Shown piece by piece: positions 2,857 through 30,149 of a stretch of 41,570 nucleotides of DNA. Numbering within the stretch: the first letter of the stretch is position 1; each line of letters opens with the position of its first letter. A program made the position numbers and the translations under genes. Below the pieces are notes generated by a model, which was given only the letters and a program-made list of their open reading frames with translations, was not told the DNA's origin and did not search any database. Source of the DNA: an uncultured Methanomicrobia archaeon (lineage in GTDB: Archaea; Halobacteriota; Bog-38; Methanoflorentales; Methanoflorentaceae); the NCBI GenBank assembly GCA_964355295.1, contig CAYHCZ010000005.1:1-41570 (forward strand), written 5' to 3'.

Positions 2857-3300
2857 TCACGTTCCCGCTGTTTCGCCCAATGTTGCAAGCGGAACATAGG
2901 GCTGCTCTGATTCTCCAATAACTACTTTCCCGTCACTTTCCAGCCACGCATGTGCTTCGAACCCCTTTACCTCCCCCTCAGGCTTGGTCACCCCTACGTG
3001 GACGATAGTAGGATACCCGTAATGCGCGAGGAAGACCTGTCCAGCGAGCGCTTGGGTTAAACACGTCGCGCGGGGAACGTAGCAGCTGGCGATGCGCACC
3101 TCACGGGCAAGCTGCGCTGTAGTAGGCGCAACAGTACGTTTGTCACGTGGCGATGCAGTAATCCGCGAAAGCAGTGCCTGAAAACGCGGGAATCGAATTA
3201 CCGAGAGTCCGATTCTTACTCCCGCAACGATACAAAAAGCGCGAAGGAATCGTCGTTGCTCAGCTGACGTCAAAGAAATGAAACGACGAAAGTTACTCAT
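2857..3300 (-). CDS. Lasso peptide biosynthesis B2 protein (transglutaminase-like leader peptidase)
   Basis: ATCLTQAL (catalytic Cys) and FEAHAWLE (His) motifs; ATG at 3300 (MSNFRRF) overlaps the B1 stop. Confidence 0.93.
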   Translation of the reverse strand: MSNFRRFISLTSAEQRRFLRAFCIVAGVRIGLSVIRFPRFQALLSRITASPRDKRTVAPTTAQLAREVRIASCYVPRATCLTQALAGQVFLAHYGYPTIVHVGVTKPEGEVKGFEAHAWLESDGKVVIGESEQPYVPLATLGETAGT

Positions 3301-3592
3301 TATCAACGATGTCGATGAGGTCGTTTTTGGCGAGCTGCTGGAGGAGGGCGATGAGATCCTTTTCGCAGCGGTCGACTTCCACGTCGTACTCCTCAAGGAG
3401 GGTGTCGCGGACCTCTCGCACCGTCCGCGGCGTTTCTATGAGCTTCCAGATTCGTGCGCCGACGGGGTCTAACCCATAGTAGACGCCATCTTTGAGGTTA
3501 AGGATTGCCGCTTCATCCCCGAGATCGGCGGAGGCTTGTTCCTTTGACACAACGACGGTATTATCAAGTGTAATTTTAGTGTTGGTAACCAT
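3293..3592 (-). CDS. Lasso peptide B1 protein / PqqD-family RiPP recognition element
   Basis: 99 aa; DLGDEAAILNLKDGVYYGLDPVGARIWKLI and EYDVEVDRCEKDL are classic PqqD/RRE; adjacent to B2. Confidence 0.95.
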   Translation of the reverse strand: MVTNTKITLDNTVVVSKEQASADLGDEAAILNLKDGVYYGLDPVGARIWKLIETPRTVREVRDTLLEEYDVEVDRCEKDLIALLQQLAKNDLIDIVDNE

Positions 3593-3984: not shown

Positions 3985-4305
3985 ATGCAACAGCTAAAAG
4001 TGGGCGCAAGTATTATCACCGTTGCTTTGTTGGTTGGTACGGTCCTCATAGCTGGATGCACGTCAAATACTTCCAGCCAAAATTCAAATCAGAGCGCTAC
4101 CACGGCGGCGCTCACTAATCACTCAGTCACTGCGAATGCGACGAAGGCAGCAACACAAAGCGCTGTGGCAACTGCCCATTCGACCGCTGTAACAACACAG
4201 ACAACGGTAAAAGCCACGCCGACCCCACAGATAACGGTAAAAGCCACGCCGACCCCCTCTCGAGGCACTATAGCTCCTTCTGAGTCTCCATTTATTTTCG
4301 AATGA
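3985..4305 (+). CDS. Thr/Ala-rich lipoprotein, possibly truncated
   Basis: Signal peptide with lipobox LIAGC; S/T-rich linker; internal duplication TVKATPTP x2 (~4203-4257); TTTATAT upstream. Confidence 0.65.
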   Translation: MQQLKVGASIITVALLVGTVLIAGCTSNTSSQNSNQSATTAALTNHSVTANATKAATQSAVATAHSTAVTTQTTVKATPTPQITVKATPTPSRGTIAPSESPFIFE

Positions 4306-4531
4306 GGCTACACAATAAGCTCAATAAGCTATCCGGCTGAGTACTCGCGGTGTCAACCGTCACAGCCTGATGCAGTGAACAACACGCAGACGATAGCGCG
4401 TTCTAACGTTGCAGCGCTTCGTCGTCGAAGCTTGGCAGTCTAAACCTTAGCAAATTCGTAGCTGATGAACGATCTCAAAACGTGCCGATTCCAATGCGAG
4501 AGATCCGTTCGCGCTGGTTGTACGAGGTCGC

Positions 4532-4660
4532 TCAGCTAAAATGATAAATTGATCCGCCCTGGACGTCATCCCCAGCAGGTCCCAAAGATCGCGTTATCTC
4601 AGCAGTGGAACCAATGACCGTAAGCGAAGGCGTTTGATACGTTTTTTTGCTCGACTTCAT
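4532..4660 (-). CDS. Lasso peptide precursor A1: MKSSKKTYQTPSLTVIGSTAEITR|SLGPAGDDVQGGSIYHFS
   Basis: Hand-translated 42-aa ORF; leader YxxPxL...G...T(-2); core Ser1 with Asp7/Asp8, aromatic tail and C-terminal Ser; directly downstream of cyclase C1. Confidence 0.92.
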   Translation of the reverse strand: MKSSKKTYQTPSLTVIGSTAEITRSLGPAGDDVQGGSIYHFS

Positions 4661-4726
4661 TGCTACACGCCCCACGACAGGCTACACAAGCTTTGGCATA
4701 GTAAGGAACGTCAGCATCATGATGCC

Positions 4727-6667
4727 CTAGTCGATTATATATCTTGCTTTTCTTGTACGCGCATCTGACGCACGAGCGAGCCAGCACCGTAGCAGTGCTG
4801 CTTTAAAGAGTACAAGCTCACCACTGTTACAGCCGTTGCAGCATTGCTCGTATAGCCCACACAACTTTGCTGTATCCACATAGTCGCTAATGAGTGGGGG
4901 ACTGTCTGCGCACGTATCCTCCATGACGGCTCGATCGAAGGCAAGCAGACTCCGCCGCAAGTTGGGGGCTAGGTTTGACTTATCGCGGCGCCATTGAACT
5001 TCGGGGGGAAGGCACCCGCCTAAGGCACGTCGCGTGATTGAACGGGTCCATCCGTTTCTAACCTTCTGCTCAGTGGGCAGCGCGAGACAGAATTCGACGA
5101 GGCGTCGATCGAAAAAAGGATGGCGGATCTCGAGCGAGAAAGCCGCAGCGGCCTTGTCAGCGATCTCAAAGGCAGTCTGAATCCACGTGAACCTGAGCTC
5201 CTTTTTGTGCCATTCCCGCGCCATCCGGGATATCTGAGAGATCGTTAACGTGAGCGGTTCGCCGACGTCATCCAGGTGAGCTTTCTTGGCAAAATCAGAT
5301 CGTATGTAGGCCCGGTCAGGCACGCGTTGTATGCGACGCACCTTTCTCAACACCGTCGCGACCCTCTCGAGCGCGGTGTCGTGGATCAATGGGAGGGCCA
5401 CGAATTCCCAGAGGACGCGACGCCGTGTGACGCGCTTACGTGCGGCAAATGCGTCTAATTCTCGTCTGACGGCAGGCCAGTTGCGGGCGCACAGCAGTTC
5501 AACGAGAAACCCTCTGCCGTGTGAGACGGTCGTATCACCATCCTCGCCGTCGAGAAGCACCCGGACGTTCGCCTGGTGCGCGGCTTCAAGTAACGCCCAT
5601 TTCACGAAGAGGTTCCCCGCTCCGAACGGTTCCTCTTCGTGCCAGAGCATCTCGTCGCTTTGCATGAAGGGACCGAATCGATCGGGATGGACGTAGTGGG
5701 GGGCACAGTCGCCTTGATCGATGACGGCGTTTATGAAGGTGCGCTCGTCACATTGCGGCACGCTATCAAAAAGCGCTGAGAACGTGTGGAGTGGCAGTGA
5801 CGGCACGCTTCCGCGCGTGCCATCGTGTCTTAAGAGATCGCGGGCGACACACGTTACCGACGAGGAATCCAGGCCGCCGCTGAGCTCGGAGCCGACGGCG
5901 TTGGCACTCCGGAGGCGACAACGGACGGCTTCGGTGAAGATAGTAAGGAAGGCACGTTCGTACTCCTCGTCGGTGTTGTAGTGGACTTCTCGAGCGACGT
6001 CGAGAGACCAGTAGGCACGCAGGTGCGCGCGGTCTGAAGTCACCGTAAGAGCATGGGCTGCGGGAAGGCGGAGGATGTCTTCGTAGAAGGTGCTGGCGCG
6101 GTCATCCTGAACAGAGGCGAGATAGCGGGCGATCTGCGCCTCGTTTGGCCGCCGTGGCACCTCGGGGAGGCAAAAAAGGCCCCTCATCTCTGAGGCGAAA
6201 ACAAAGAGCGCGTCAGAGCGATAGTAGTAGAAGGGCTTTACGCCCATGTGGTCTCTCGCACAAAAAAGCACGCGCCGTTCGTCGTCCCATATGGCAAAGG
6301 CGAAGTCGCCGAGGAGGTGTTCGGGACAGTGCTCGCCCCAGCGTTCATACGCGCTAAGAATAAGCTGACTATCGGTCAGGGGTGATCCAGCTGCTGTGAA
6401 ATGCAGTGCGGCGATGAGCTCGTCGCGGTTATCAATACGGGCATCGGCGGTGATGGTAAAGCGGGCGTCGTCGCTGGTGCACGGAAGGTGTTCGTGAAGG
6501 GATTCGGGAGTCGTCCAGAGCATGCGGTGGCCGAGGCCAACCTGGCCATGGCGCCAGGTGTCGGACCCGTCGGGGCCGCGATGGGCGAGGGCGTCGTTCA
6601 TCAGGCCAATGGCTGAGGGGTCGACTTTTCGGTCGTCGTGCACGTAGATGCCGGTGATCGCGCTCAC
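4727..6667 (-). CDS. Lasso peptide cyclase C1 (asparagine-synthetase-like isopeptide-bond-forming enzyme)
   Basis: Likely start GTG at 6667 (MSAITGIY, Ser in place of the glutaminase Cys); HRGPD, DARIDNR, SGGLDSSS, RHPFFDRR. Confidence 0.92.
   Translation of the reverse strand: MSAITGIYVHDDRKVDPSAIGLMNDALAHRGPDGSDTWRHGQVGLGHRMLWTTPESLHEHLPCTSDDARFTITADARIDNRDELIAALHFTAAGSPLTDSQLILSAYERWGEHCPEHLLGDFAFAIWDDERRVLFCARDHMGVKPFYYYRSDALFVFASEMRGLFCLPEVPRRPNEAQIARYLASVQDDRASTFYEDILRLPAAHALTVTSDRAHLRAYWSLDVAREVHYNTDEEYERAFLTIFTEAVRCRLRSANAVGSELSGGLDSSSVTCVARDLLRHDGTRGSVPSLPLHTFSALFDSVPQCDERTFINAVIDQGDCAPHYVHPDRFGPFMQSDEMLWHEEEPFGAGNLFVKWALLEAAHQANVRVLLDGEDGDTTVSHGRGFLVELLCARNWPAVRRELDAFAARKRVTRRRVLWEFVALPLIHDTALERVATVLRKVRRIQRVPDRAYIRSDFAKKAHLDDVGEPLTLTISQISRMAREWHKKELRFTWIQTAFEIADKAAAAFSLEIRHPFFDRRLVEFCLALPTEQKVRNGWTRSITRRALGGCLPPEVQWRRDKSNLAPNLRRSLLAFDRAVMEDTCADSPPLISDYVDTAKLCGLYEQCCNGCNSGELVLFKAALLRCWLARASDARTRKARYIID
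4735..4741 (-). promoter_or_regulatory. Putative TATA box for precursor A1
   Basis: Minus strand AAAAGCAAGA-TATATAA about 75 nt upstream of the ATG, inside the 3' end of C1. Confidence 0.4.
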
Positions 6668-6973
6668 GTCGTAGCTCCGGGTTCTGACCAAAGCAAACAA
6701 CCAGTCACGCGGTAGTACGCTCCGCGTGCGCGTCTCTGCCGAGATCCTTTTGGCAGCACGCTAACGTGGGTGGGCTTTAGCGTATGGCTCCCAGAAGAGG
6801 GGTGTTCGCTCAAGGTGCCATTCCACCACAAACCTTTGTTCATGTACGTATTAAAGCTTGATGCCGCGTGCGACGCGGCACTGTTCGATGGGCGTTTCGA
6901 CTCCTGCCACAACGCAGGAGAGGAGCGACCTGCATCAGTAGCGCGCACACGTTCGTCGAGGCGGTCGTACGGA

Positions 6974-7873
6974 TCACTCTTTGACGGTGTTCACTGCAGC
7001 CTCGACAAGCCGCACTGCCTGCGGAATCTCATCGAGGGAGGCCCCCGTGTGCAAGCGGCGGACGCTGGCGGTGCGGAGCACACTCGCGCACTGCACCATA
7101 TTCCGCACAGTGGCGTCCGGCGTGAACATCCTGTAGCAATACGAATGACTCACGAGTTGAATAAGGGCTTCGTGCGGCGTGAGCGTTTCGATAGAAGGGA
7201 TATTGCCCCGGCTGAGCACGAAGACGTGGTTTAGGGGTTGCCGTTCCGCGGAGAAACGGCCTGCCGCGTGAAATGCCCGCTTTTCAACGGTGGGCCCCAC
7301 CCGTTCGAGGCGTTGCGGATCGTACGAAAAGCGCTGCAGAGATTGCGGCCAGCAGTTGATTTGGGGGCACGCGGGAATGACGGTTGACGCGTGCGCGTCG
7401 ACCTCGATTGCAGTTACGTCATCAGCGATGACGTAACGCCCTCGGGCGTAGAACGCCAGCGCAACGGTCGATTTTCCCTGTGCGGAGGTCCCTACAAAAG
7501 CGACTCCCTCGCCGTTTATCGTCAACGCGCTCGCATGAAGCACAAGCCGCCCCCGTTGGTGAAGGAGGGCACCAAACCCTGCCCCCAGCACCACTGCCCG
7601 CAGGACAGGTACAGGGACTTCTTCTAGGGGATCGATGATGATTTCACGGCCGTCACGCATCATTAGCGTACCGACATCATCCCAGAAGCGGTAGATGCAC
7701 TGGTTAGTGACGCAGAAGTCTGGCCCAGAAACCGTTCCTTGACCACCTGTCGAAGGTATCTCGAGACGGCCTAGAGAGATGGTCACGTCGGCATTATCGC
7801 TGGCGCACGTCTCAAGAGTGGGAAAGGAAAGAGCTGAGCGCGTCCCTAGGCCGTATATCGTGTAGTGGAACAT
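6974..7873 (-). CDS. HPr-kinase-like lasso peptide kinase K1
   Basis: LHQRGRLVLHAS, Walker A GTSAQGKST, IADD; probable start MFHYTIYGL (the ORF extends to 7945). Confidence 0.88.
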   Translation of the reverse strand: MFHYTIYGLGTRSALSFPTLETCASDNADVTISLGRLEIPSTGGQGTVSGPDFCVTNQCIYRFWDDVGTLMMRDGREIIIDPLEEVPVPVLRAVVLGAGFGALLHQRGRLVLHASALTINGEGVAFVGTSAQGKSTVALAFYARGRYVIADDVTAIEVDAHASTVIPACPQINCWPQSLQRFSYDPQRLERVGPTVEKRAFHAAGRFSAERQPLNHVFVLSRGNIPSIETLTPHEALIQLVSHSYCYRMFTPDATVRNMVQCASVLRTASVRRLHTGASLDEIPQAVRLVEAAVNTVKE

Positions 7874-8658
7874 TCGAATTGGTGCGAGTCGAGAGTACTT
7901 TTTGAACGTTATTCCCGTCAGTCTCTTATCTAAAACTTCAGTCAATATCTTTTTGCCGGGAACGCCAGATGAATCCCCTGTGTTCTGCTGGCGGTGCTCC
8001 GAGCGCTTGAGAAGGCATACGTATCCACCGCATTAATCTTTTTTCTTGTCACCGTCTCATTATGCACTGCTTCCCCGCTGATTCTCCCTCTTTGCGGATG
8101 TCCGTGCCGTCCCTCAGGTAGTAGTAGATGCAAACAGATTCTGGCGCGACGAAGCAGGCCCTTTAAACTCTCGTTGGAGACGCTCACGGTGCCGATCACA
8201 GAGCTGATCGCAGGCATAACAGGTTCGCGCAGAAAGGCTTCGAGATATTCGAGTCGGTGAGCCAACGCTCGACAACCACTACCTTCCCGAGCATAAACTC
8301 TCCCGCGCGTCCCGCGGACGCGGTCGTCGTACCTGCCGCAGGCGCTGACGGTCGGAATAGGGGTCGATCGGCAAGGTGCTCGACGTGAGCACGCGTTCAA
8401 GCGCATCGCAATCGAAGGTGATAGGACCGTGCCGAAAATCGGAGAAAAGGTCGCCGTGTCTGTCCGCATTAATGATGTCCTAAAGGAATGCATCAAAAAC
8501 GCTTGAGCAACATCGTAGCACCGTTGTACGTTCACTTAAAGGTGAAGAAGAGTACGGTTGATGTTTCGCCTCGCGCCGCTTCAGTAAAGCCGCTGCCACT
8601 GTAGAAAAAGAGAAAGGAAATAAGGGGAGGGAGCACGGGCCCTACCCCACCATCACCG

Positions 8659-9948
8659 TTATTTAGTCTCCGTGACGATCACCGTGATCGTATCACTCAC
8701 GCTCTCCCCATATATACTCGTCCCGGCAAAGTGTGCCCGTATGGAGTAATACGGATTTTCTGCTGTATTTGCTACGGTAATGTACCCTCTGAAGCTGTAC
8801 TGCCCCTGCGGGCCGGTGACCTTGTCCAGGCTGATGCGGTACCAGTCACCGTTATACAATGCCTCGAGGTAGACGGGCTGCCCGGCGAGGGGCCCCGTAT
8901 CCGTGCTGTGTGTGCCGGAGATGGTGAACTTGCCGTTCTTCGTTTCGGTTGTTTGGTGATTGCCGTTTACAATAGCGGTGAGGGTTGTCGGTCCCTTTGC
9001 GGTGACCGTGACGGTATCAGGCGTACTTGATGCTCCATAATGGTCGGTCACGATCTGGGTAAAGACGTAGTAGCCTGCCTTGTCCGGCGTGAAAGTGGGA
9101 TACTGTGCCGTCGTGTCGATGATGATGGCGCTTCCGGCCGGTTTCTTATCTACGGTCCACGCGAAGCTGAGCGGGTAGTGGTCGCCGGGGTCATACACGC
9201 CGCCGCCTAACGTTACGAGCGTGTTGACGGTGACTGTCTGATCTTGTAACGCGTTTGGGACGGGTGGCGCGTTCGTTGCCGTTATCGTGACGCTGTCTGG
9301 CGTGCTCGAAAGGCCGAGGTTGTCCGTCACGGTGAGGGTAAAGACGTAGTCGCCCACTTTGTCCGGCGTAAATGAGGGGCGCGAGTCAGTCGGGTTAGCG
9401 AGCGTGATGGAGCTTCCGGCCGGTTTCTTATCTACGGTCCACAAGTAGGTGATCGGAAGGTGGTTGTCAGTTTCATGGCTCAAGTCTCCGACTAACGTCT
9501 TGCTGTGGTAGATCTCCAGCGATGAATCGGGTCCAGCCTCTGCGACGGGCGGTATGTTCGTTGCCGTTATCGTGACGCTGTCTGTGTCACTTAACCCGCC
9601 AGTATCGGTCACGATCTGGGTAAAGACGTAGTTGCCCACCTTGTCCGGCGTGAAAGTGGGATATTGTGCCGTAAAGCTCGAGAGGGTAATGGTGCTTCCG
9701 GCCGGTACGTTATCTATGGTCCACATGATGGAGAGCTGCCAGGGCCAATCTTCGATGTCCGAGATCCCCCCGCCTAACGTCACGGGGGTGTTGACGACGG
9801 TGACTTCCCGACTATCTCCCGCTTCTGCGTGGGGTGACTCGTTCGCCGCTGCAGTTATCGTAGATCCCACAAAGATCGAGAGCATCATCATCACTACAAC
9901 TGCCGCGCCCAGTGCTCTCGTCAACCTTTTTTTGCGCGTTTTATTCAT
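8659..9948 (-). CDS. Secreted PKD/Ig-like repeat surface protein
   Basis: Signal peptide; three PKD-like repeats (W...PAGS...TFTPDKxGxYVFT...D.VT.TA); C-terminal Big-like domain; pyrimidine-rich terminator-like tract at ~8604-8627. Confidence 0.85.
   Translation of the reverse strand: MNKTRKKRLTRALGAAVVVMMMLSIFVGSTITAAANESPHAEAGDSREVTVVNTPVTLGGGISDIEDWPWQLSIMWTIDNVPAGSTITLSSFTAQYPTFTPDKVGNYVFTQIVTDTGGLSDTDSVTITATNIPPVAEAGPDSSLEIYHSKTLVGDLSHETDNHLPITYLWTVDKKPAGSSITLANPTDSRPSFTPDKVGDYVFTLTVTDNLGLSSTPDSVTITATNAPPVPNALQDQTVTVNTLVTLGGGVYDPGDHYPLSFAWTVDKKPAGSAIIIDTTAQYPTFTPDKAGYYVFTQIVTDHYGASSTPDTVTVTAKGPTTLTAIVNGNHQTTETKNGKFTISGTHSTDTGPLAGQPVYLEALYNGDWYRISLDKVTGPQGQYSFRGYITVANTAENPYYSIRAHFAGTSIYGESVSDTITVIVTETK
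8678..8968. repeat. Domain-encoding repeat, copy 1 (copy 2 at 11615..11890)
   Basis: High nucleotide identity by eye; copy 1 carries 15 extra nt. Confidence 0.85.
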
Positions 9949-10985: not shown

Positions 10986-12012
10986 TCAGGGGGGGATAGG
11001 AGCGGTTATATCGCTCTCTGAAGCCGCATAGGTCGAATCTCCTGCAAATCTCGCTTGATAGAAGTTGCCGGCCGGTACCATTTCAACGAAATTCGACAAT
11101 GTACTATCAGTGGTGGTTACGTCAACCTTTGAATTGAGTGTCGTTGGGGTCGGCCCATAGTATATACTTACTGTTAGACCAGCGAGAGGATTACCGCCCA
11201 GGTCCCTTAGATACCCCTCGAACCAATAGGGTACATCTGGTGAGGCCGAGGCCCAAACGGCAAAATCTCCGATCTGCGTCAAGGTCTTGTAAGTATGGTC
11301 GTACGGTGCAATGAGCGTTTGCGTCTCTACACTCAGTTGATTGCCTAAAGCGTCAAAGGTCTTGAGCGTCACCACCACTGGTACGCTCGCGCTTACGTCG
11401 GGGTATCCATATGTGTCTACAAAGGGTTGTGGTGATGTGACAGAATAGCTCCACCCCCGCCCCGCATACGAGCCGCTGGAACTTATTTCATACAATGCAA
11501 TGTTGCTTGGGGGGGTATTCACCTGCTATGATCATCCAGTTCGCATGCCACATAGAGTAGTAAGAATCGTACGTCCAGCCCTGAAAAGTCGCGGTCATCA
11601 GTGAAGTTTTGACTATCACCGTGATCGTATCACTCACGCTCGCCCCATACGCGCTCGTCCCGGCAAAGTGCGCCCGTATGGAGTACGTTCCTACTACGGT
11701 AATGTACCCTTTGAAGCTGTACTGCCCCTGATTACCGGTGACCTTGTCCAAGCTGATACGCTGCCAACTCCCCTCATACAATGCCTCGAGGTAGACGGGC
11801 TTCCCGGCGAGGGCTCCGGTATCCGTGCTGAGTGTGCCGGTGATGGTGAACTTCCCGTTCTTTGTTACGTCTATGTTGTGGTTGCCGTTTGTGGTCGCGG
11901 TGAGCGTTGTTGGTGCTGCACCGTTCGCGCTAGTTTTTACAGCAGCTGTTGCGACAAACAAAGATAACAACATCAGAGCCACTAAAGATAACGATAACAC
12001 TTTTTTCATCAT
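10986..12012 (-). pseudogene. Secreted Ig-like surface protein split by a 1-nt frameshift (ORFs 11488..12012 and 10986..11522)
   Basis: Signal peptide plus Big-like domains; removing one G from the G7 run at 11509-11515 joins IIAGEYPP to SNIALYE. Confidence 0.7.
11615..11890. repeat. Domain-encoding repeat, copy 2
   Basis: Matches 8678..8968. Confidence 0.85.
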
Positions 12013-12788: not shown

Positions 12789-14660
12789 TTACTGTCTTGG
12801 GTTGCTTCGCGCAACTCCTTGTACCTGACACAGCTCGTTAAAACGTCCGTTTTCCTTTCTGGAAAGCGTCGCCCAGTCTCCAGATTCAATGATTCGGCCG
12901 TCTTCGAGCACATAGATGATATCCGCGTTTCGTATTGTCGAGAGACGATGCGTTATGATGACAATGGTCATGTCGCCGTGCAGGGCGTCGATCGCGTCCT
13001 GGATCCGCCGCTCGTTTTCCGAGTCCAGGCTGCTCGTTGCTTCGTCGAGCAGCAACACGGCCGGCTGACGTAACAACGCGCGTGCTAAGGCCAACCGTTG
13101 GCGCTCACCTCCCGATAACCGTACGCCGCGGTCACCGAGCACCGTCTCTATACCACTGGGAAGCTGCGACACAAAGTCCTCTGCAGCTGCCGTGCGTAGA
13201 GCGGCAGTAATCTCCGCGTCGCTCGCCGTGGGATACGCCCATAAGAGGTTCGCGCGCACGGTATCGTTAAAGAGGAAGGTGTCCTGTGCGACGTAACCGA
13301 TGTGACGGCGCCACGCGTAAAGACGTTCGGCATTCAGCGGCACGTCGTCGATGAGAACTTGCCCTTCACGCGGCAGGATAAGCCCCATGATGAGGTCGGC
13401 AAGTGTGCTCTTTCCCGCACCAGAACTGCCGACGATTGCGGTCGTTTCCGCTGCGTTGACGACGAAGTTGATGTTGTTGACAGCCGCCTGCCCATCATCA
13501 GTATATGCGAAGGAAACGTCTCGGAACTCGATACATTGTTGCAGATTTACCTCTTGCGGGTCGTCGATCTCACGTTCAGCCGCTGCTTCGCATCGCGTCT
13601 GGATCGCCATGATGTTGGCAAACGAGGGCAGCATGTTGATGAAGTACTGGTAGGTCTGCTGAATCGACGAAAATTTAGGGATAATGCGGTAGAATAGAAA
13701 CAGCAGGAGCAGCGCAACGGCCCCCGGAATGTGCAAAATCTCGATTAAAACAACAAGAGACGCGCCGAGGATAAGCACCGATCCGATGTCAAACAAGCTA
13801 CGCGTACCGCTCCAATTCCGAATGTAACCGACGTTTGCACCCTTAATCTGCTCATTGAACTTTGAAAAGAGCGCAGCGTTCTGTTCCTGAGCACCGTAAC
13901 TCTTGATGGCCTTCATCCCATTGAGGTGCTCGGTTATGGCGCCAAAAAGCTCCCGCGTATCTGCGGATAAAGCCGTGCCCTTTGCCCGCGCAAGGGAAAC
14001 CTTGCGCCTGAGAGTAAGAAGGAGGATTATCCCGCACACGACGACAGCGCCTGTCACTACCGCCGAGAGTTGCCACGCAATAAATAGATAGACCAACACA
14101 ACCATTACGCTCACCGCCAGTTGCAGCACCTGTTGCGTGCCAGCGCCGACGCGTTCGATCTCTGCGGTTAACGCATGTATAAACGTCGAGGCCCGCTGGC
14201 GTGAAAAGAAGAGCCAAGTGGTGTTGATGATCGCGTTGTACAGTCGTTGCCTGAGAAGCGATTCGAGCTCGTAGGTGATCGTAAAGCTCGTGTTGTTTTG
14301 CCAGCGGTTCAAGAGCGCGTAGAGGCTCATAATCACGACGTAGACGGCGAGCACCGAAACAAGGGTTATCGGGAATCCGACAAGCGTGAAAAACGACGCG
14401 ACATAGTAGGTGATACTTCCCGTTGTGCCCTGCCCCGTGTTGAAACCTACGAGCTGTAACAGCGGTAGCAAGAGCAGAAGTCCCACCCCTTCGGTTAGAG
14501 CGAGCGCTACCGTGAGCGTTACGGCAAGCGCCACCTGACCGGGCATGGTGCCCCACAGGAGAGAAGCGTATTGCCCCGCTTTGCTGTGTTGTACCCAAGA
14601 GGACGCAGACGCGCGCAGTCTTCTGCTTATAGACGGTGCCTCGTGTGCTTCGGTGGCCAA
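12789..14660 (-). CDS. ABC transporter, fused permease/ATPase (lasso exporter D)
   Basis: N-terminal TM domain; GSSGAGKST, LSGGERQR, LLLDEATSSLD, H-loop. Confidence 0.92.
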   Translation of the reverse strand: MATEAHEAPSISRRLRASASSWVQHSKAGQYASLLWGTMPGQVALAVTLTVALALTEGVGLLLLLPLLQLVGFNTGQGTTGSITYYVASFFTLVGFPITLVSVLAVYVVIMSLYALLNRWQNNTSFTITYELESLLRQRLYNAIINTTWLFFSRQRASTFIHALTAEIERVGAGTQQVLQLAVSVMVVLVYLFIAWQLSAVVTGAVVVCGIILLLTLRRKVSLARAKGTALSADTRELFGAITEHLNGMKAIKSYGAQEQNAALFSKFNEQIKGANVGYIRNWSGTRSLFDIGSVLILGASLVVLIEILHIPGAVALLLLFLFYRIIPKFSSIQQTYQYFINMLPSFANIMAIQTRCEAAAEREIDDPQEVNLQQCIEFRDVSFAYTDDGQAAVNNINFVVNAAETTAIVGSSGAGKSTLADLIMGLILPREGQVLIDDVPLNAERLYAWRRHIGYVAQDTFLFNDTVRANLLWAYPTASDAEITAALRTAAAEDFVSQLPSGIETVLGDRGVRLSGGERQRLALARALLRQPAVLLLDEATSSLDSENERRIQDAIDALHGDMTIVIITHRLSTIRNADIIYVLEDGRIIESGDWATLSRKENGRFNELCQVQGVARSNPRQ

Positions 14661-14779: not shown

Positions 14780-16705
14780 CTAAGAGCGCTTCAGGATCGT
14801 GCGCTTCAGCCAAAGTCCAAGGATCAGCGCGTTCCACACAAACGTAGCGTTTTTCCTTTCACAAGAGAATGCAATATATAAACGTTTCAACATATCACGG
14901 TCGATGTAGCGTTCGAGCTGGTGTGAGTTGATCAAGAAAGTGTCTTCAAGCCGATCACGCTCAAAACGTAAGAGGGCCTCGCTAACAAGCGGCGCGAAGT
15001 CTGTTTTACTAGTCCGCTGTCGGATTTCGAGGGGCAGACACGTGGCTAAGGCGCGCCTTACGATAGCCCGCGTATAGCCATCGCGAACCTTCTGTTCAGG
15101 GGGCAAGGCCAAACAGTACTCAACAACTCGACGATCATAGAAGGGATGGCGGAGTTCCAAAGAAAACGCTGCGGCTGCCTTATCGAGCGTTTCTAGATCG
15201 TATTGATCCCTCCCCCCTATAAGATTGTCGTGGTGGAACGCCCGCGAGGTGCGAAGCTCCCAGTCCTTTCTTCGATCCTCTTCAATGAGCTCCCGAACAC
15301 CTGAACGTTGAAAAAGCATTGGTTTCACGAACGGCTGTGCGATCAACAAGCGAGAGGGTCTATGCAGCGTTCGCCATATGCGGCCCACTGCGTTTGGCGT
15401 AAGAGTTCGGACCACCGGGAAGAAGATCAGATTTTTCAAAGCGAGATGCAACGGGATGTCGTAGTTCCTAGCCGCCCTTTTTCCCTCTTTCAACATTGTC
15501 ACCCATTGACCTCTTAAAAAGAAATCCGCCCAGACGTGAAATCCATAGGAGACTACCGCATCACCCGATTCGCCATCCAACAGGACCCGGGTGCAAGCCG
15601 CTTGCGCACTGCTGTGAACGGCCCAATGATAGAATATAACCTGGTCGTGGACCGGCTCATCCTCGTGCCATAGTATATGCTCTATGTCTGCAAGCGGGCT
15701 CTGCTCGTCGAGGTGGACGTAATGGGGTAGGAGGTCGCCTTGGGCAACGATTACCTCGATGTACCGTCGCTCGTCGTACATCGGATCTTCAAAAACTGCA
15801 GAAAAACAATGGAGAGGTCGAGAATGACTAAGAGATCCATCGCGGCGAAGAATATCTCGAGCGATACAGGCGACGGAGGACGAATCAAGACCCCCACTTA
15901 GCTTGATGCCGACAGCATATGCGCTACGGAGGCGGCAGCGGACAGCTTCGGTGAAGACCTTACGGAATGCCTGTTCGTATTCTTCGTCAGAATCGAAGTG
16001 GAGTTCGAAGGTGGGATCGGGCGCCCAGTAGCGATAAAGACGCTGGCCGCCTTCGGTTATGACGACTACGTGCGCAGCGGGTAAGCGAAGGATATTATGA
16101 AATGAAGTGATCTGCGGATCGTAGTATAACGCGTTATAGGAATGCCCCTCTTTAACTAAATGTCGTGCGATTTGCACTTCGTTGAGCTCCCGATGCACCT
16201 CAGGGAGACAAAAGAGGGCTTTGATCTCAGAGGCGAACGCGAAGAACACCTCAGAACGGTAATAATAGAAAGGCTTGATGCCCATGTGGTCGCGCGCGCA
16301 GAAGAGGGACTGACGGGGACCGTCCCAGAGAGCAAACGCGAAGTCGCCGAGGAGGTGGTCGACGCAGTCTTCCCCCCAGTGCTCATAAGCGTAGACGATG
16401 AGCTGGCTATCGGTGATCTGCTCAGGAGGTTGAGTTAGACCAAGGGCAGTGATGAGCTCGTCGCGGTTATCGATACGAGCATCGGCGGTGACGGTGAAGC
16501 GGGCGTCGTCGCTGGTGTAGGGGAGGTGCTCGTGGAGGGACTCTGGGGTTGTCCAGAGCATGCGATGCCCGAGGGCGACAGGACCGTCATGCCATATTTC
16601 GGAGGCGTCGGACCCGCGGTGTGCGAGGATATCGGTCATCTGGCGTATGAACGCAGCTCCGACAGCGTTGCCATTTAAGCTGTAAATGCCAGCAATGCCG
16701 CTCAT
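14780..16705 (-). CDS. Lasso peptide cyclase C2
   Basis: MSGIAGIY, DARIDNR, SGGLDSSS, RHPFYDRR. Confidence 0.92.
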   Translation of the reverse strand: MSGIAGIYSLNGNAVGAAFIRQMTDILAHRGSDASEIWHDGPVALGHRMLWTTPESLHEHLPYTSDDARFTVTADARIDNRDELITALGLTQPPEQITDSQLIVYAYEHWGEDCVDHLLGDFAFALWDGPRQSLFCARDHMGIKPFYYYRSEVFFAFASEIKALFCLPEVHRELNEVQIARHLVKEGHSYNALYYDPQITSFHNILRLPAAHVVVITEGGQRLYRYWAPDPTFELHFDSDEEYEQAFRKVFTEAVRCRLRSAYAVGIKLSGGLDSSSVACIARDILRRDGSLSHSRPLHCFSAVFEDPMYDERRYIEVIVAQGDLLPHYVHLDEQSPLADIEHILWHEDEPVHDQVIFYHWAVHSSAQAACTRVLLDGESGDAVVSYGFHVWADFFLRGQWVTMLKEGKRAARNYDIPLHLALKNLIFFPVVRTLTPNAVGRIWRTLHRPSRLLIAQPFVKPMLFQRSGVRELIEEDRRKDWELRTSRAFHHDNLIGGRDQYDLETLDKAAAAFSLELRHPFYDRRVVEYCLALPPEQKVRDGYTRAIVRRALATCLPLEIRQRTSKTDFAPLVSEALLRFERDRLEDTFLINSHQLERYIDRDMLKRLYIAFSCERKNATFVWNALILGLWLKRTILKRS

Positions 16706-17446: not shown

Positions 17447-18424
17447 TTACCACCTGATCTTGACTGCATCTTCTATCAGATGTACGAGCGCCGGAAGCGA
17501 CTCGAGAGAGCGACACGTTCTGGCACGAAGGGTTGTTGTCGACGCAGCGACGCGTGCGCAGCGCGATAGGTGCGTGACGATCTCCTCTTCAGCTAGCAGC
17601 CTAAAGCAATAGGAGTTATCGAGAAGCGCGGCGAGGCTTTCTCGGCGCGAAAGTCTTTTCAGAGCACTTTCAGCAGCTGGATCGAGAACGCATAAGTACT
17701 TAAGGGGAACATCGGCGTCGGGAAATTGCTGTCGCACTGGAAAAGCGCGCTTCACCGAGTAGGGGGTGCACGTGCTCAACGTCGCTGGGTCGTGCGAGAG
17801 TGCCGCCAATGTATCGGGCCAGAGGTTTATTTCGGGATACGCAGGCGGAACGACTGGCGATGGCCCGTCGAGCTTGACGGCGACAACGTCGTCGGCCACT
17901 AGCTGGTGTCCGCGGGCGTGGAGCGCGAGGGCGAGGGTCGATTTTCCTCGTCCTGATTTCCCAAGAAAAATAACTGCTTCACCATCGATCGCAGCGGCGC
18001 TTGCGTGAAGAGTAAGGAAACCCCGCTGGTGGAGGAGCGCTGCAAATACGTCTGTAAGAATCATCTTGCGAAGTACTCTCTCATCTGCGCCGGGCGACGG
18101 ATTGACGGTGATCTCTCGTCCGTTTTGCACCAAAAACGTCCCAATGCCTTCCCAGAACAGGAGTATACCTCGCGAAGCAACGCGATAGTTCGCGCCAGCT
18201 GCAGTGATTTCGTCTGACGCCGGTAATGAGCTTACACGGCCGTAGCGGACTACAACGTCGACTTTTGTTGGGGCGCTCACGGGAGCGCTGAAAAAAGGGA
18301 TGACAGAAGCAACGCTTAGTCCGTATAACGTACAAAAGTACGATCCATTTGTCACTGGCGCTTGCTTCAAAACATCTGTTGTCACTAACGCGTGGTCTTT
18401 TTTAATGCAATCTGCAGAAACCAC
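17447..18424 (-). CDS. HPr-kinase-like lasso peptide kinase K2
   Basis: LHQRGFLTLHAS, GKSGRGKST, VADD; start uncertain. Confidence 0.88.
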   Translation of the reverse strand: MVSADCIKKDHALVTTDVLKQAPVTNGSYFCTLYGLSVASVIPFFSAPVSAPTKVDVVVRYGRVSSLPASDEITAAGANYRVASRGILLFWEGIGTFLVQNGREITVNPSPGADERVLRKMILTDVFAALLHQRGFLTLHASAAAIDGEAVIFLGKSGRGKSTLALALHARGHQLVADDVVAVKLDGPSPVVPPAYPEINLWPDTLAALSHDPATLSTCTPYSVKRAFPVRQQFPDADVPLKYLCVLDPAAESALKRLSRRESLAALLDNSYCFRLLAEEEIVTHLSRCARVAASTTTLRARTCRSLESLPALVHLIEDAVKIRW

Positions 18425-18471: not shown

Positions 18472-18536
18472 AGGATCTCGCTCGGGATCCGCCCCGAGAT
18501 CCTACGGTTTTGGCGAAACCTGACTTTCGTCAGGTT
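18472..18536 (-). terminator. Two stem-loops at the 3' end of precursor A2
   Basis: AACCTGAC-GAAA-GTCAGGTT (18517-18536, perfect 8-bp stem over the stop codon) and AGGATCTCG...CGAGATCCT (18472-18503). Confidence 0.55.
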
Positions 18537-18670
18537 CCTTGAGTTTTCGCTCGGGGGGCTGGAGAGCCGTCGCCTGAGCCCGTCCCTCGCAGCGTATATT
18601 CCCTCAAGGATCCGATACAAGTCAACTTTGGCTGTGAGTAATTCCTTTTTGTGCGGTCTTCTATGTTCAT
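18530..18670 (-). CDS. Lasso peptide precursor A2: MNIEDRTKRNYSQPKLTCIGSLREYTL|RGTGSGDGSPAPRAKTQGT
   Basis: Hand-translated 46-aa ORF; YSQPKL...IG...T(-2) aligns without gaps to the A1 leader; core has Asp7; lies between C3 and K2. Confidence 0.9.
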   Translation of the reverse strand: MNIEDRTKRNYSQPKLTCIGSLREYTLRGTGSGDGSPAPRAKTQGT

Positions 18671-18833: not shown

Positions 18834-20747
18834 TCACTCGACAAAGCTAGCGTTGCGTTCTTTCTCCTTTTGTAGCCAAAGTTCTAGAACAACAACTTGC
18901 CACACTGCGTACCCTCCCCGAGTATCCCCTTTGGTCACCAAGTCAAACGCTTTGCGGGCTTGAGAGATCTCAACGTAATTATCGACCAGGCGATGCTCCT
19001 TTGACAAGACTTCCTGCACAAGCGCCTTGTCAAACGTACGTAAACCACGATAGAAGACTGCCGCATTGCTCGATTTGTCAACTCGACATCGTATTGCGCG
19101 CGGAAGACAATTAACCAATGCACGCCGCGCCACTACCCTGTTAAACCCTGCGCTTAGCTTTTGCTCTGCTGGGAGGGCTAAGCAGAACTCGACCAACCGC
19201 CGGTCGTAAAACGGATGTCGGCCCTCCATTGAAAAATCTGCAAAAATCTGATCCATCACTTCTAGGTCAAATTGCACTTTCGGCGCCGTAAGGTCTTTGT
19301 AGTGCCTCTCGCGCGCCGTCCGGGTCGTCGATCGAGCACGGTCGACGATGTCCACTTGCGGCTCGAGCTTAATGCGCTCAGCAAAGTCTCGTTTAATCAA
19401 CAGTTCTGGGGCTGCTGGCTGCACTACCTGTGGCACTGCCCTACGCAACGTTCTACGAACGATGTTAGGCGCTGATGCGACCAACATAGGTAACAAAATG
19501 TCACGTCGTGATCTATGAGTACGCTTAGAGAGCGCGTTGATCTCCCGTAGCAGGGTGCGCAGTTTCAGGTTGCGCGCCAGTTCAAAGAAACGGCCGTCGC
19601 CATGCGATACGACACTATCACCGTCCTCGCCGTCTAAGATCACACGAATCCGAGCATTTCGGGCGGCTGCCAGCAATGCCAGCCCAATTTGATCGCCGGC
19701 CGAGTGATAAAGCTGATCGAGTTGCCGCACAATCTCCTGAACGTCATCAAAAGGGTCTCGCTCATCAGCCGGCACTAAATGGGACTCAAGATCGCCTTGG
19801 GCAACGATCGCGTTGATGAAGTAACGCTCGTCACTCTCCGGCACATTGTCGTAGAAAGCGGAGAACGTTTGGAGCCGCTGTGATGGTAAACGCCCGTTTA
19901 GATCTTGCTTCCTCAGCAGCTCACGCGCTACGCACACGACCGAAGATGAGTCAAGTCCGCCGCTAAGCAGTGACCCGACAGGATAAGCGCTGCGGAGGCG
20001 ACAACGAACGGCTTGTGTGAAGAGGTCACGATAAGCACGCGCATACTCCTCATCTGAAGCAAGGTGGATTTCACGCGTAGGATCAAGGAACCAATACCGA
20101 CGGAGTTCGACACGTCGATCGCTGATAAGCAACGTATGAGCGGCAGGCAACCGCACGATGTCGGCGTAGAAAGTGATTTCCCGGTCCTCAAAGTTGCTTT
20201 TCAAATAATGCATTATTTGCACCTCGTTGACCTTCCGGGGAACGTCCGGGACAGTGAAGAGGGCTTTGATTTCGGAAGCGAAGGCAAAAAGGTGATTTTG
20301 AGCGTGATAGTAATAGAATGGCTTGACCCCCATGTGGTCTCGGGCACAGAAGAGCTGCTGCTGAGAGCCGTCCCATATAGCAAACGCGAAGTCGCCGAGG
20401 AGGTGTTCGGGACAGTGCCGGCCCCAGCGGTCGTATGCACGAACGATGAGCTCGCTGTCGGCGATCTCGTCAGGTGATGCAGTTAAGCCAAAAACTGAGA
20501 TGAGCTCATCACGATTATCGATACGAGCATCACTCGTCACGGTGAGTGGGGCAAGGGTGAACGGCAATCGTTCGTAAAGGGATTCCGGAGTCGTCCAGAG
20601 CATTCGGTGGCCGAGCCCGACGGAGCTTTCTTGCCACGTGCCCGCAGCGTCGGGACCGCGTCGCGCGAGGCTATCGGTCATGTGCTCAAGTAGGCTAGGG
20701 TCAAGACTCTTGTCATCAAGGCGATAAATTCCGAGAATGCCGCTCAT
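18834..20747 (-). CDS. Lasso peptide cyclase C3
   Basis: MSGILGIY, RRGPD, DARIDNR, SGGLDSSS, RHPFYDRR. Confidence 0.92.
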   Translation of the reverse strand: MSGILGIYRLDDKSLDPSLLEHMTDSLARRGPDAAGTWQESSVGLGHRMLWTTPESLYERLPFTLAPLTVTSDARIDNRDELISVFGLTASPDEIADSELIVRAYDRWGRHCPEHLLGDFAFAIWDGSQQQLFCARDHMGVKPFYYYHAQNHLFAFASEIKALFTVPDVPRKVNEVQIMHYLKSNFEDREITFYADIVRLPAAHTLLISDRRVELRRYWFLDPTREIHLASDEEYARAYRDLFTQAVRCRLRSAYPVGSLLSGGLDSSSVVCVARELLRKQDLNGRLPSQRLQTFSAFYDNVPESDERYFINAIVAQGDLESHLVPADERDPFDDVQEIVRQLDQLYHSAGDQIGLALLAAARNARIRVILDGEDGDSVVSHGDGRFFELARNLKLRTLLREINALSKRTHRSRRDILLPMLVASAPNIVRRTLRRAVPQVVQPAAPELLIKRDFAERIKLEPQVDIVDRARSTTRTARERHYKDLTAPKVQFDLEVMDQIFADFSMEGRHPFYDRRLVEFCLALPAEQKLSAGFNRVVARRALVNCLPRAIRCRVDKSSNAAVFYRGLRTFDKALVQEVLSKEHRLVDNYVEISQARKAFDLVTKGDTRGGYAVWQVVVLELWLQKEKERNASFVE

Positions 20748-20798: not shown

Positions 20799-21812
20799 TT
20801 AGGTGCTCGAAGTTGATATACGCTTAAAGCGTTCCCGTGCCGCCCCCAGGGTGTACAGAATGTCAACTGCGATCGTGGCCCCTGCGAGTGCGGTGATTTG
20901 ACCTGGGTTATCGTACGGCGGCGAGAGCTCCACAACATCTCCACCCACGATGTTCAATCCTTCAACGCTCCATAGAATTGCGCGGGATTTAAACGTGTCC
21001 GGCCCGCCAATCACGGGGGTGCCGGTTCCGGGCGCAAAAGCAGGGTCAATGAAATCGATGTCAAATGTCAGATAGACGGGGCTTTCACCGACGATCTTTC
21101 TGACTTCATTACCGATCTGCGCTGCCGTGTGCTCATTCACGAAGAGCCCATCAAGAACGCTAAAGCCTTTACCCGTCGATCGATCGTATGGCGAGCGGAC
21201 GCCGATGTGCACAGAGCGCCGCGGATCGACCAGACCTTCCTGAACGGCACGATAGAACTGGGCACCGTGATTGTACTCTTCTGAGTCGAGGTCATCGGTG
21301 TGGGCATCAAAGTGAACGAGTGACAGAGGACCATAACGTTTGGCATAAGCGCGAAGAATAGGGTACGTAGCGAAATGGTCGCCTCCGAGCATTAAGATTG
21401 ACGCACCAACGCTTAGAATGAGCCCGGCCATTAACTCTGTGTTCTTGATCATCTTCTCAGGATGGCCTGGCGGACACCGCACGTCGCCGAAGTCTCGGGT
21501 CTTATACCTCTCTTTGACATCATAGTCTCTCGGCCACGCACGTCCACGTCCGTGCAGGCCGGTATACTGCGAGAGATCACGAAGGGCGCGAGGTCCAAAG
21601 CGTGCCCCTGGCCGGTAAGAAGTGCCGAGATCGAACGGGATTCCGAGAATGGCTAGCTCGGTGTCAGCTTGGTCAGTAGGAAACGGCGCATTCATAAAAG
21701 AGGTATCAAGGCCGACTAGAGCTTGGTGCCCCTCTCTGTTAATGAGGTCTTCTAACTTTCCATCCGCGTCAGGATTCTTTCGCACAGTCGCTCCCAATTT
21801 TGCTATATCCAT
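20799..21812 (-). CDS. speB: Agmatinase/arginase-family (ureohydrolase) protein
   Basis: GIPFDLGTSYRPGARFGP, GGDH, DAHTD, DIDFIDPAFAPGTGTP; Mn ligands intact; substrate not established. Confidence 0.88.
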   Translation of the reverse strand: MDIAKLGATVRKNPDADGKLEDLINREGHQALVGLDTSFMNAPFPTDQADTELAILGIPFDLGTSYRPGARFGPRALRDLSQYTGLHGRGRAWPRDYDVKERYKTRDFGDVRCPPGHPEKMIKNTELMAGLILSVGASILMLGGDHFATYPILRAYAKRYGPLSLVHFDAHTDDLDSEEYNHGAQFYRAVQEGLVDPRRSVHIGVRSPYDRSTGKGFSVLDGLFVNEHTAAQIGNEVRKIVGESPVYLTFDIDFIDPAFAPGTGTPVIGGPDTFKSRAILWSVEGLNIVGGDVVELSPPYDNPGQITALAGATIAVDILYTLGAARERFKRISTSST

Positions 21813-22788: not shown

Positions 22789-23958
22789 CTAGAGTCGGGG
22801 TTGCAACAGTGAAACGACAAATTCCACCGTCACGCGAAGAGGGTGGTAAAAGTAGTAAAAAGGCGTCAATGACGCCGGCAAGGACATAAGGCGAAAATCG
22901 TTTGCTGTAGGTACGAAAACATAAAAAAAGAGGATATGCACACGGTCTCTCAAGCTCTCTTTGGTCGCCAGCCGGTCAAAAACACTATCAAACTTTGAGC
23001 GGCGCTTAGGTTCTTTAAAAAGCGCATCTCTTGCATGCTCAGCAAGCTTTCGCGCTCCAGCATCGCGCTTAGCAGCAGCCAAAACCTCTTCAGGCACTGG
23101 TATATTGAAGAGATCGCACACCAAGAGGAGGCTTACAAAAAGCGCTCGTTGACCCTTCGTCTTTTGCACCTGCTCCCAAAGAAGGTCCCAATTGAGGCGA
23201 GGATACCGGTAGATGATCTCCGCCACGTCACTTATTACATCAAGAGAGAGCCAAAGATGACTCGCCGCGTGAATGCATGAAACGAACAGCAGATCCTCTG
23301 CGGATAGGATGCACACATTTTCGCCGAGCAAGCATATATCGGACGAGTTATTCACGAGATCCGGCACGATTGACACACGTAGATATGCAGCAGACATGAT
23401 ATCCCAATGCAGGTCGACCTCGGCCTCACCGAAAGCCGCGCTCTCAAACTGACGCTCAAAGCCACACTTGAGAAGAAGGCGCTCTTGGACGCTGTTGCAG
23501 CGAATCCGAGGTTCATACTCGGCTGAACGAAGTAGTACCTGCACGCGTGCAAAATCTTCTTTGAGTATCAAGATGTCAAGATCCTCACTACGCCGAATGC
23601 CAACATCCTGGTATATTAGTTGTGAGAAAACGGGCCCTCGTAAGGGAATCAAAAGGATGCCGTTATCTTTAAACAAACGAATGAGGCGACGGAGCTCTCC
23701 AATCAAGCCTAGGTTCCTTAGCACGTTCTTCTCAAAATTACAACGCAGGTCATCCATTACTATTAACGGCACGCGATCAAACGCCAAGTCGTTAAGATGC
23801 TTGTAAAGGCGGGCCACTACCAAGTGCCGCTCCGCGAGCGCAACAAGGCGGTTCCAGTCAACGTCCTCCTCCAGCAACGCGTGAGCGCGCTCCGCGGCAG
23901 GGCCGTCGAGGTGTGCCCGCGCACATAACAACAATAACTCTTCTTCGGGCGTGCTCAT
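22789..23958 (-). CDS. Nucleotidyltransferase family protein (NTP_transf_5, lasso-associated type)
   Basis: DWNRLVALAERHLV, PLRGP (usually LKG), RRSEDLDILI, VDLHW, CIHAASH. Confidence 0.85.
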   Translation of the reverse strand: MSTPEEELLLLCARAHLDGPAAERAHALLEEDVDWNRLVALAERHLVVARLYKHLNDLAFDRVPLIVMDDLRCNFEKNVLRNLGLIGELRRLIRLFKDNGILLIPLRGPVFSQLIYQDVGIRRSEDLDILILKEDFARVQVLLRSAEYEPRIRCNSVQERLLLKCGFERQFESAAFGEAEVDLHWDIMSAAYLRVSIVPDLVNNSSDICLLGENVCILSAEDLLFVSCIHAASHLWLSLDVISDVAEIIYRYPRLNWDLLWEQVQKTKGQRALFVSLLLVCDLFNIPVPEEVLAAAKRDAGARKLAEHARDALFKEPKRRSKFDSVFDRLATKESLRDRVHILFFYVFVPTANDFRLMSLPASLTPFYYFYHPLRVTVEFVVSLLQPRL

Positions 23959-27564: not shown

Positions 27565-27799
27565 TGCTTCACTGTTGCAGCTTGTTGCAGTTCGTTTTTT
27601 CTTTGCCACGCTCTGAGTGCCTCGATGTTCTCGCAGCGTCGATAATGAACGATCGTAGAAAAGGCAGGCGCCGGTTCGAAAGGCCTCCGGTTTTTAGAAG
27701 CGAGACTAGCGATGGTGCGATTGCACCGAGAGTTATCCACAATATGTTATCAAAATAAAAAGATAGTTAGACCTCTTCTCAATAACTATCAGGTCGACC

Positions 27800-30141: not shown

Positions 30142-30149
30142 CAATGCTT

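Follow-up and report, generated by a model that had tools for sequence, protein, structure and literature searches.

A predicted C-terminally phosphorylated lasso peptide precursor on a contig of a methanogen-lineage archaeon

Among lasso peptide systems that include a kinase, PadeK, ThcoK and SyanK are stated in a review to place phosphate, in some cases more than one, on the C-terminal Ser of the linear precursor. The corresponding part of the pseudomycoidin paper reports that PsmK acts likewise on the C-terminal Ser with Asp158 and Asp159 being essential, and that addition of a hexose to the phosphate requires the nucleotidyltransferase-like protein PsmN, described there as belonging to an uncharacterised nucleotidyltransferase family; a bulky end group is suggested to help hold the thread. 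According to passages of both sources, a His-Lys-Asp-Asp motif and an Asp-Asp metal site are essential in ThcoK and PsmK. One paper counts 47 lasso structures in the PDB, all from three bacterial phyla, a passage citing Tietz et al. 2017 flags the Euryarchaeota as an underexplored lasso source on the basis of genome mining, and predicted euryarchaeal lasso structures are mentioned as included in LassoPred. Here we analyse a 41,570-base stretch of archaeal DNA, referred to as the window, which is the entire contig C5 of genome bin G000 (2.08 Mb, 302 contigs, 60% complete). On it we describe a small gene, A1, which we consider moderately likely to encode the ribosomal precursor of a class-II-type lasso peptide that is phosphorylated at its C-terminal Ser in a methanogen-lineage archaeon. 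A1 and the genes proposed to act directly on its product are the following.

4660..4532, minus strand: A1, lasso precursor, 42 codons with ATG start and TGA stop (4534..4532), intact
4727..6667, minus strand: C1, lasso macrolactam cyclase, Asn-synthase-like (NF033535, 777.4 bits; PF00733, expectation value (E) 9.9e-49)
6974..7873, minus strand: K1, HPr-kinase-like peptide kinase (PF07475, E 1.2e-7, 31.9 bits)
17447..18355, minus strand: K2, second HPr-kinase-like kinase (PF07475, 41.3 bits, above cut-off; aligns with K1 and relatives)
3293..3592, minus strand: B1, PqqD-type recognition element for ribosomally synthesised peptides that undergo post-translational modification (RiPPs), a leader-binding chaperone (PF05402, 72 bits)
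2857..3300, minus strand: B2, transglutaminase-like leader peptidase (NF033537, 92.2 bits with a cut-off of 33; PF13471, 73.8 bits)

Translation of A1 (MKSSKKTYQTPSLTVIGSTAEITRSLGPAGDDVQGGSIYHFS) gives a 24-residue leader (Met1-Arg24) followed by an 18-residue core (Ser25-Ser42); an in-frame GTG at 4675 represents a possible alternative start. The leader carries the motif YxxPxLxxxG in the form YQTPSLTVIG, and Thr23 occupies position -2 before Ser25, as is characteristic of lasso leaders. In core numbering, the peptide begins with Ser1, contains Asp7 and Asp8 in the region (positions 7-9) in which the macrolactam acceptor is found, and ends with Tyr15, His16, Phe17 and the terminal Ser18 (Ser42, directly followed by TGA). 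An earlier reading of this DNA made from the letters alone, hereafter the sequence-only reading, had quoted a core with these Asp, Tyr/His/Phe and Ser residues, and residues 25-42 match it exactly. The gene order K1-C1-A1 given there (7873..6974, 6667..4727 and 4660..4532) was found to be correct as well. A1 lies 66 nucleotides (nt) downstream of C1, with B1 and B2 located 0.9-1.7 kb further downstream.

A1 resembles the NCBIfam model lasso_cyano (NF033528) with E 1.7e-7. In addition, a hidden Markov model (HMM) of the leader was built from 87 motif-bearing small open reading frames (ORFs) of other loci, leaving out the window; two of the 87 were later judged spurious. The source loci derived from 145 C1 relatives in species-representative genomes, the best 80 of which were kept as 79 loci, and same-family genome loci were added. 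Scanning the 1302 stop-to-stop ORFs of the window with this model recovered A1 (E 6e-7) and a second precursor, A2 (E 1e-3), followed by a next match at E 0.16 only, and the two matches below E 0.01 each sit directly after a cyclase gene. A word search with A1 in a protein collection of 5.8 billion clusters returned no protein of 23-74 residues sharing three 5-residue words. A1's own sequence was absent from that collection, consistent with its having been called unannotated, and an agmatinase-like protein of the same contig was present there. Comparing the 42-residue peptide with the genomes of relatives gave only weak matches, in 6 of the 41 at E ≤ 1 and with 0.0045 as the best foreign E; these led to the precursors of the same-family genome G005.

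The only close relative of A1 found (56% identity) is encoded on a metagenome contig, L121, which was retrieved with C1 as query and shows 85.3% DNA identity over 3268 nt to window positions 7551..4307. It carries orthologs of K1 (84% identical over 190 residues, all the contig holds) and of C1 (84% identical over 625 residues) followed by an intact precursor ORF, the order K1-C1-A thus being kept. Over the 20 codons that encode leader residues Lys5 to Arg24, the two precursor genes are separated by four synonymous changes and three replacements. The cores, on the other hand, are strongly diverged (18 versus 17 residues, the frame being preserved across a 3-nt indel) and share Leu2, Gly6, Asp8, Gly11-Gly12 and the terminal Ser; position 7 is Ala in the L121 core and Ser13 of A1 is replaced by Pro. 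A conserved leader combined with a fast-evolving core in which a few positions are fixed is the pattern expected for a RiPP precursor. The leader motif, Thr at position -2, Asp7/Asp8, the position directly after a cyclase gene, the proximity of B1 and B2 and the conservation in L121 together strongly support the proposal of the sequence-only reading that A1 is a lasso precursor, which we regard as very probable on these sequence features.

A TATA-box-like element resembling ATATATAA was noticed at the 3′ end of C1 (window 4735-4745, minus strand), approximately 75-80 nt upstream of the A1 ATG, and a similar element is present at the same place in L121 (about 2805-2826). It may represent an internal archaeal promoter for the precursor gene.

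The cleavage site of A1 was placed after Arg24 because of the Thr at position -2. With the cut at such a Thr-x site, Asp or Glu falls at core positions 7-9 in 42 of the 52 distinct short cores taken from genome loci and in 48 of the 55 from metagenome loci, two sets that may share a few records. The sequence-only reading had named both Asp7 and Asp8 as ring acceptors; both are present, and we favour Asp8 over Asp7, since position 7 is Ala in L121 and Asp8 recurs in cores of the same family, such as NIGPYLQD... (G005, L150), VKNPGPGD... (G018) and TKPPGSSD... (G005, L122). A ring closed at Asp7, as in A2 and some Methanobacterium cores, is possible and less likely. The adjacency of the two genes and the conserved K1-C1-A unit in L121 suggest that C1 is the natural cyclase for A1, and two further cyclases of the window, C3 and C2, the latter without a precursor of its own, may act as alternatives. 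Cleavage after Arg24 and cyclisation between Ser1 and Asp8 by C1 are, in our judgement, probable. For the dehydrated core, a monoisotopic mass of 1787.8115 ([M+2H]2+ 894.913) was calculated, which a single phosphate (+79.966 Da) would raise to 1867.7778; hexosylation would add a further 162.053. In some cyanobacterial precursors (L029:8003-8167, L035:7992-8216 and L042:5768-5983), a cut after Thr-x leaves positions 7-9 without Asp or Glu. The L029 core contains SLGPGDD, similar to the SLGPAGDD of A1, but after six extra residues, so that cleavage may occur elsewhere or the leader may be longer there.

Structures of a PqqD-type protein bound to a lasso leader have been solved. Structure prediction of B1 together with A1 resulted in a complex score of 0.56, the best of three controls reaching 0.01, and lends weak support to an interaction: among 80 solved complexes 58 passed the mark applied, as did 2 among 110 mismatched pairs, and at scores of 0.60 or under it was passed by only 7 of the 80 solved complexes and by both of these mismatches. 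The prediction runs showed at least 95% contact agreement and a partner pLDDT (predicted local distance difference test) of at least 57. As such solved structures exist, this pass may reflect likeness to them.

HPr-kinase-like genes, K1 and K2, are present within the cluster as in paeninodin-type systems. The two kinases are 37-38% identical over their full length (E 5e-62), with the start of K2 being uncertain (GTG 18355 by alignment or GTG 18424). The best PDB sequence matches of K1 are HPr kinases (3tqf, E 0.0023), with an alignment that covers the His, the P-loop GxxGxGKS and the Asp-Asp pair. When eight kinases of archaeal, acidobacterial (Acidobacteriota) and cyanobacterial origin were aligned, His113, Gly128, Gly133, Lys134, Ser135, Asp151 and Asp152 (K1 numbering) proved invariant. 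His113, Lys134, Asp151 and Asp152 fit the His-Lys-Asp-Asp motif as the review describes it, the sequence alignment itself having been made to HPr kinases only. The intact catalytic residues of K1 and the synteny of K1-C1-A kept in L121 support the previous suggestion that A1 is the substrate of K1 and C1. As a single query against genome contigs, K1 retrieved two loci only.

A terminal Ser occurs in 23 of the 52 and 24 of the 55 short cores, compared to 10.4% and 8.6% Ser elsewhere in the cores, an approximately four-fold enrichment that rests on related loci and is not a clean statistic. The link between kinase and terminal Ser is enriched, not universal. A kinase homolog is found in most of the loci fetched, and those without one are mostly short contigs, so that a clean contrast of kinase versus terminal Ser is not available. 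Within A1, Ser18 is favoured as the target because the terminal Ser is kept in L121 while Ser13 is Pro there. By analogy with the characterised kinases, phosphorylation of Ser18 by K1 or K2 appears somewhat likely. Among the short cores with another last residue, many have a Ser, often as Gly-Ser, three to five residues before the C-terminus (...GSRII, ...HSRGA, ...GSEVG, ...GSYLQ), as seen in L024, L055, L059, L066, L071, L083, L122, L150 and others. Such an internal Ser may be another kinase target or a trimming site in some members.

From the ORF, family resemblances, genomic partners, catalytic motifs and ortholog computed here, we infer the chemical steps, the choice of kinase and the ring size of the following pathway. 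The PqqD protein B1 would bind the A1 leader (YQTPSLTVIG...T), and K1, possibly substituted by K2, would transfer one or more ATP phosphates to the side chain of Ser42 (core Ser18) with the leader still attached. B2 would then cleave after Arg24, and C1 would adenylate the side chain of Asp8 (Asp7 being less likely) and couple it to the amine of Ser1, creating an 8-membered macrolactam. The tail would be threaded through this ring, with Tyr15, His16, Phe17 and the modified Ser18 serving as plugs. Finally, an ATP-binding cassette (ABC) transporter, D, would export the product, and a nucleotidyltransferase-like protein, N, may attach a further group on the phosphate.

The lasso-related genes are all located on the minus strand of the window. 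In the direction of transcription, the order is N, an arginase-family gene, C3, A2, K2, C2, D, three Ig/PKD genes, K1, C1, A1, an opposite-strand ORF, B1 and B2. The members other than those listed above are as follows.

18530..18670, minus strand: A2, second lasso precursor (motif scan; leader HMM)
18834..20747, minus strand: C3, lasso cyclase paired with A2 (NF033535, 744.3 bits)
14780..16705, minus strand: C2, third lasso cyclase (NF033535, 710.4 bits)
12789..14546, minus strand: D, ABC exporter (PF00005 and PF00664)
20799..21812, minus strand: arginase-family gene (agmatinase model NF002564, 338 bits)
22789..23958, minus strand: N, uncharacterised nucleotidyltransferase, NTP_transf_5 (PF14907, 166.7 bits)

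C1, C2 and C3 are the only matches in G000 above the NF033535 cut-off of 525 bits. The C1 start was taken as GTG 6667, where its N-terminus aligns with the starts of C2 and C3, and its translation shows the PP-loop SGGLDS. C2 is directly followed by D, which is 46-64% identical to the transporters of related lasso loci. Homologs of N adjoin the kinase in many related loci; in the window, N is on the same strand as A1 at a distance of 18 kb. B1 scores 74.6 bits on NF033536, under the cut-off of 80, and tblastn found no other B1 homolog in the window. For B2, the start is ATG 3300, with a TTG at 3396 upstream also open. Six-frame reading and the leader HMM of the window revealed no third precursor beside C2, between K2 and C2 or upstream of K1. 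ORFs 6664-6948 and 7942-8535, having neither a family match nor a leader motif, were taken not to be genes.

A2 (MNIEDRTKRNYSQPKLTCIGSLREYTLRGTGSGDGSPAPRAKTQGT) follows C3 and precedes K2, which is the canonical order C-A-K. Its core (RGTGSGDGSPAPRAKTQGT) starts with Arg, contains two Arg in all as well as Asp7, and ends in Thr. An AT-rich, TATA-like stretch is located approximately 45 nt upstream of the A2 ATG. Given how alike the A1 and A2 leaders are, the single B1/B2 pair probably serves both precursors. The arginase-family gene, positioned 52 nt upstream of C3, is not the lineage's own copy: the best matches of relatives are only 29-33% identical to it, G000 has a separate arginase-family copy on contig C49 that is 30% identical, and its named matches at approximately 46-51% identity are bacterial. 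No homolog of it was found in the other lasso loci fetched for comparison. Because the A2 core has two Arg, a role as a peptide-arginase-like enzyme acting on A2 is conceivable as speculation; the gene itself scores as an agmatinase. A wider reading of the contig as a multi-product lasso factory, with one B1/B2 pair, two precursors and three cyclases, in which K1 would modify the Ser of A1, K2 the Thr of A2 or another site, and a horizontally acquired, bacterial-type agmatinase-like enzyme beside C3 the Arg of A2, seems doubtful to us. If it were true, no archaeal lasso peptides would have been chemically defined before these products, which would bear phospho modifications and possibly phospho-glycosyl or ornithine ones.

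Between A1 and B1, a lipoprotein-like ORF of 106 residues is found on the opposite strand (3985-4305, plus); its N-terminus is signal-like and ends in Cys (…LIAGC…), its tail is rich in Thr and Ala, and domain-profile scans gave no family match for it. The DNA similarity to L121 stops at window position 4307, the 3′ end of this ORF. Genes for secreted PKD/Ig-domain proteins (8659-9948 and 10986-12012, minus strand) are situated between the lasso sub-clusters, and the products of 8659-9948 and 11488-12012 have a very similar stretch of about 100 residues in common (…NGNH…TKNGKFTI.GT.STDTG.LAG.PVYLEALY…). A locus of the same genus, L021 (G006:C18:102000-121900), combines a full kinase, 41-44% identical to K1/K2, with a B1 fragment and a cyclase piece of about 100 residues; it looks like a decayed copy of the cluster.

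Several observations weigh against A1 as the precursor of a phosphorylated lasso peptide. The 31.1 bits of A1 on NF033528 fall below the curated cut-off of 33, so that A1 is considered a relative of this subfamily, not a member, and the score of K1 is just below the PF07475 cut-off of 33.3 bits. Ser is uncommon as first core residue (3 of 52 short cores). The gene order is rearranged relative to the canonical B1-B2-C-A-K-N-D of relatives, K1 preceding C1, with B1/B2 about 1 kb off past the opposite-strand ORF, and D and N 8-18 kb away. With three cyclases and two kinases available to two precursors, and just one B1/B2 pair, the pairing of enzymes and substrates is not fixed by position. The sequencing runs listed with the locus comprise one DNA run, with a small share of the words, and no RNA run. 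Further doubts concern the kinases. In a kinase tree made by a quick method only, the careful search being unfinished, the nearest precursor ends in Ser for 19 of 73 kinases and otherwise for 44, while 10 have no precursor that could be located; K1 and K2 fall among same-genus kinases, the partners of which are mixed or not found, and no starred clade contains K1. Since the closest clade of K1 is mixed, a kinase in the cluster does not alone predict a terminal phospho-Ser. The 44 kinases without a Ser-ended neighbour would fit an A1 that is a genuine lasso precursor with an unphosphorylated terminal Ser, K1 and K2 acting elsewhere (for example on Ser13), on A2 only, or otherwise. In the same direction point the long Cys-rich cyanobacterial cores beside kinase homologs, 3 of 32 of which end in Ser, and the Thr at the end of A2, which lies directly beside K2. 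Moreover, of the 29 short cores that lack a terminal Ser, 17 show one within the last four residues (40 of 52 when all short cores are counted), hinting at other sites. Nevertheless, the L121 precursor keeps the terminal Ser and not Ser13 despite a mostly changed core, terminal Ser is enriched in short cores as stated above, and the characterised lasso kinases, as far as the review and the pseudomycoidin paper describe them, all target the C-terminal Ser. We hold an unphosphorylated terminus to be unlikely, yet deserving of serious weight.

It is also conceivable that A1 is a remnant of a rearranged, partly decayed super-cluster that yields no mature product in the host, be it due to the lack of dedicated B1/B2 genes in the operon, redundant cyclases or lack of expression. 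All relevant ORFs of the window are, however, of full length and without stops, synonymous changes outnumber replacement changes in the leader relative to L121, the frame survives the 3-nt indel in the core, and the K1-C1-A unit is conserved in a second population. Against these stand the non-canonical gene order, the ORF 3985-4305 between A1 and B1 where synteny with L121 ends, and the decay seen within the lineage in L021, where the kinase is kept alongside a cyclase fragment; we regard a remnant as quite improbable. That A1 is a chance intergenic open frame encoding nothing could be argued from its 42 codons only, the missing word-search homolog and the family score below the curated cut-off. 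The significance of the NF033528 match, the leader HMM result with its two matches in 1302 ORFs, both right after a cyclase, and the intact ortholog with its conserved leader in L121 make this extremely improbable. A precursor modified at its terminal Ser is the interpretation that we favour.

The host is known from a metagenome-assembled genome of an archaeon. The gene mcrA was found in five of five relatives of the same genus or family that were searched; searches of the 60%-complete G000 found no archaeal small-subunit ribosomal RNA, mcrA or RNA polymerase Rpb1 domain. A kinase homolog is present in 7 of the 41 related genomes, G000 counted, and the lasso cluster is therefore patchy in the lineage. 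Among the relatives listed, the closest named ones of C1 are 'Methanobacteriota archaeon', 'Euryarchaeota archaeon' (a record that equals G018) and 'Methanomicrobia archaeon', followed by Cyanobacteria and Methanobacterium, the best named Methanobacteriota and Cyanobacteria being 36-53% identical. The remainder of the contig is filled by a glycan or cell-envelope gene set (24812-40320), comprising a UDP-glucose dehydrogenase, a sugar nucleotidyltransferase, a DegT-type aminotransferase, a methyltransferase, a GT1 glycosyltransferase, a Wzx-type flippase, a hexapeptide acyltransferase and a DUF2206 membrane protein.

The locus provides a concrete and testable archaeal candidate with a precursor, a predicted cut site, a predicted ring and modification site, and calculated masses. 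The L121 precursor represents a natural variant showing which core positions are constrained, and two kinases together with two precursors of different C-termini on one contig could help to define the specificity of lasso kinases.

Compared with the described systems, the A1 cluster resembles those of paeninodin (Paenibacillus dendritiformis C454) and of ThcoK and SyanK, as presented in the review, in the split B1/B2 proteins, the Asn-synthase-like cyclase, the ABC transporter and the HPr-kinase-like kinase, as well as in the Ser-ended precursor and the His/Lys/Asp-Asp residues of the kinase; K1 is likened to PadeK, ThcoK, SyanK and PsmK by description, not by sequence. It differs from these systems in its archaeal host, whose relatives carry mcrA, in a core unrelated in sequence with a predicted Ser1-Asp8 ring, in the order K-C-A with B1/B2 detached, and in that a single contig holds two kinases, three cyclases and two precursors. 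Pseudomycoidin (Bacillus pseudomycoides DSM 12442) shares with the window, as far as the paper on it describes, a kinase and an uncharacterised nucleotidyltransferase gene, the candidate here being the NTP_transf_5 gene N. In pseudomycoidin, (poly)phosphorylation of the terminal Ser takes place on the precursor, hexose is attached afterwards, and the resulting bulky C-terminal group is the proposed plug; the paper also indicates that pseudomycoidin can form without B1/B2. This analogy would fit A1 with its single Ser18 after Phe17, whereas N of the window lies 18 kb from A1, beside the A2 sub-cluster, and is likened to PsmN by family description. Also similar are the predicted cyanobacterial and Methanobacterium clusters modelled as lass_lactam_cya (NF033535) and lasso_cyano (NF033528), which have the same B1-B2-C-A-K-N-D gene set as the window and leaders that share YxxPxLxxxG.....T with A1 (by construction of the set); the A1 core differs from theirs in being unique apart from the L121 precursor. 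Literature searches, which did not extend to supplementary tables that may already list this cluster family, found no chemically characterised member of this branch and no characterised archaeal lasso peptide. By its family matches, the A1 cluster belongs to a large, chemically uncharacterised cyanobacterial-archaeal branch already modelled by NCBIfam. The A1 locus is an archaeal example of a kind of cluster known from bacteria, which will not surprise a specialist and leaves the picture of lasso biosynthesis unchanged.

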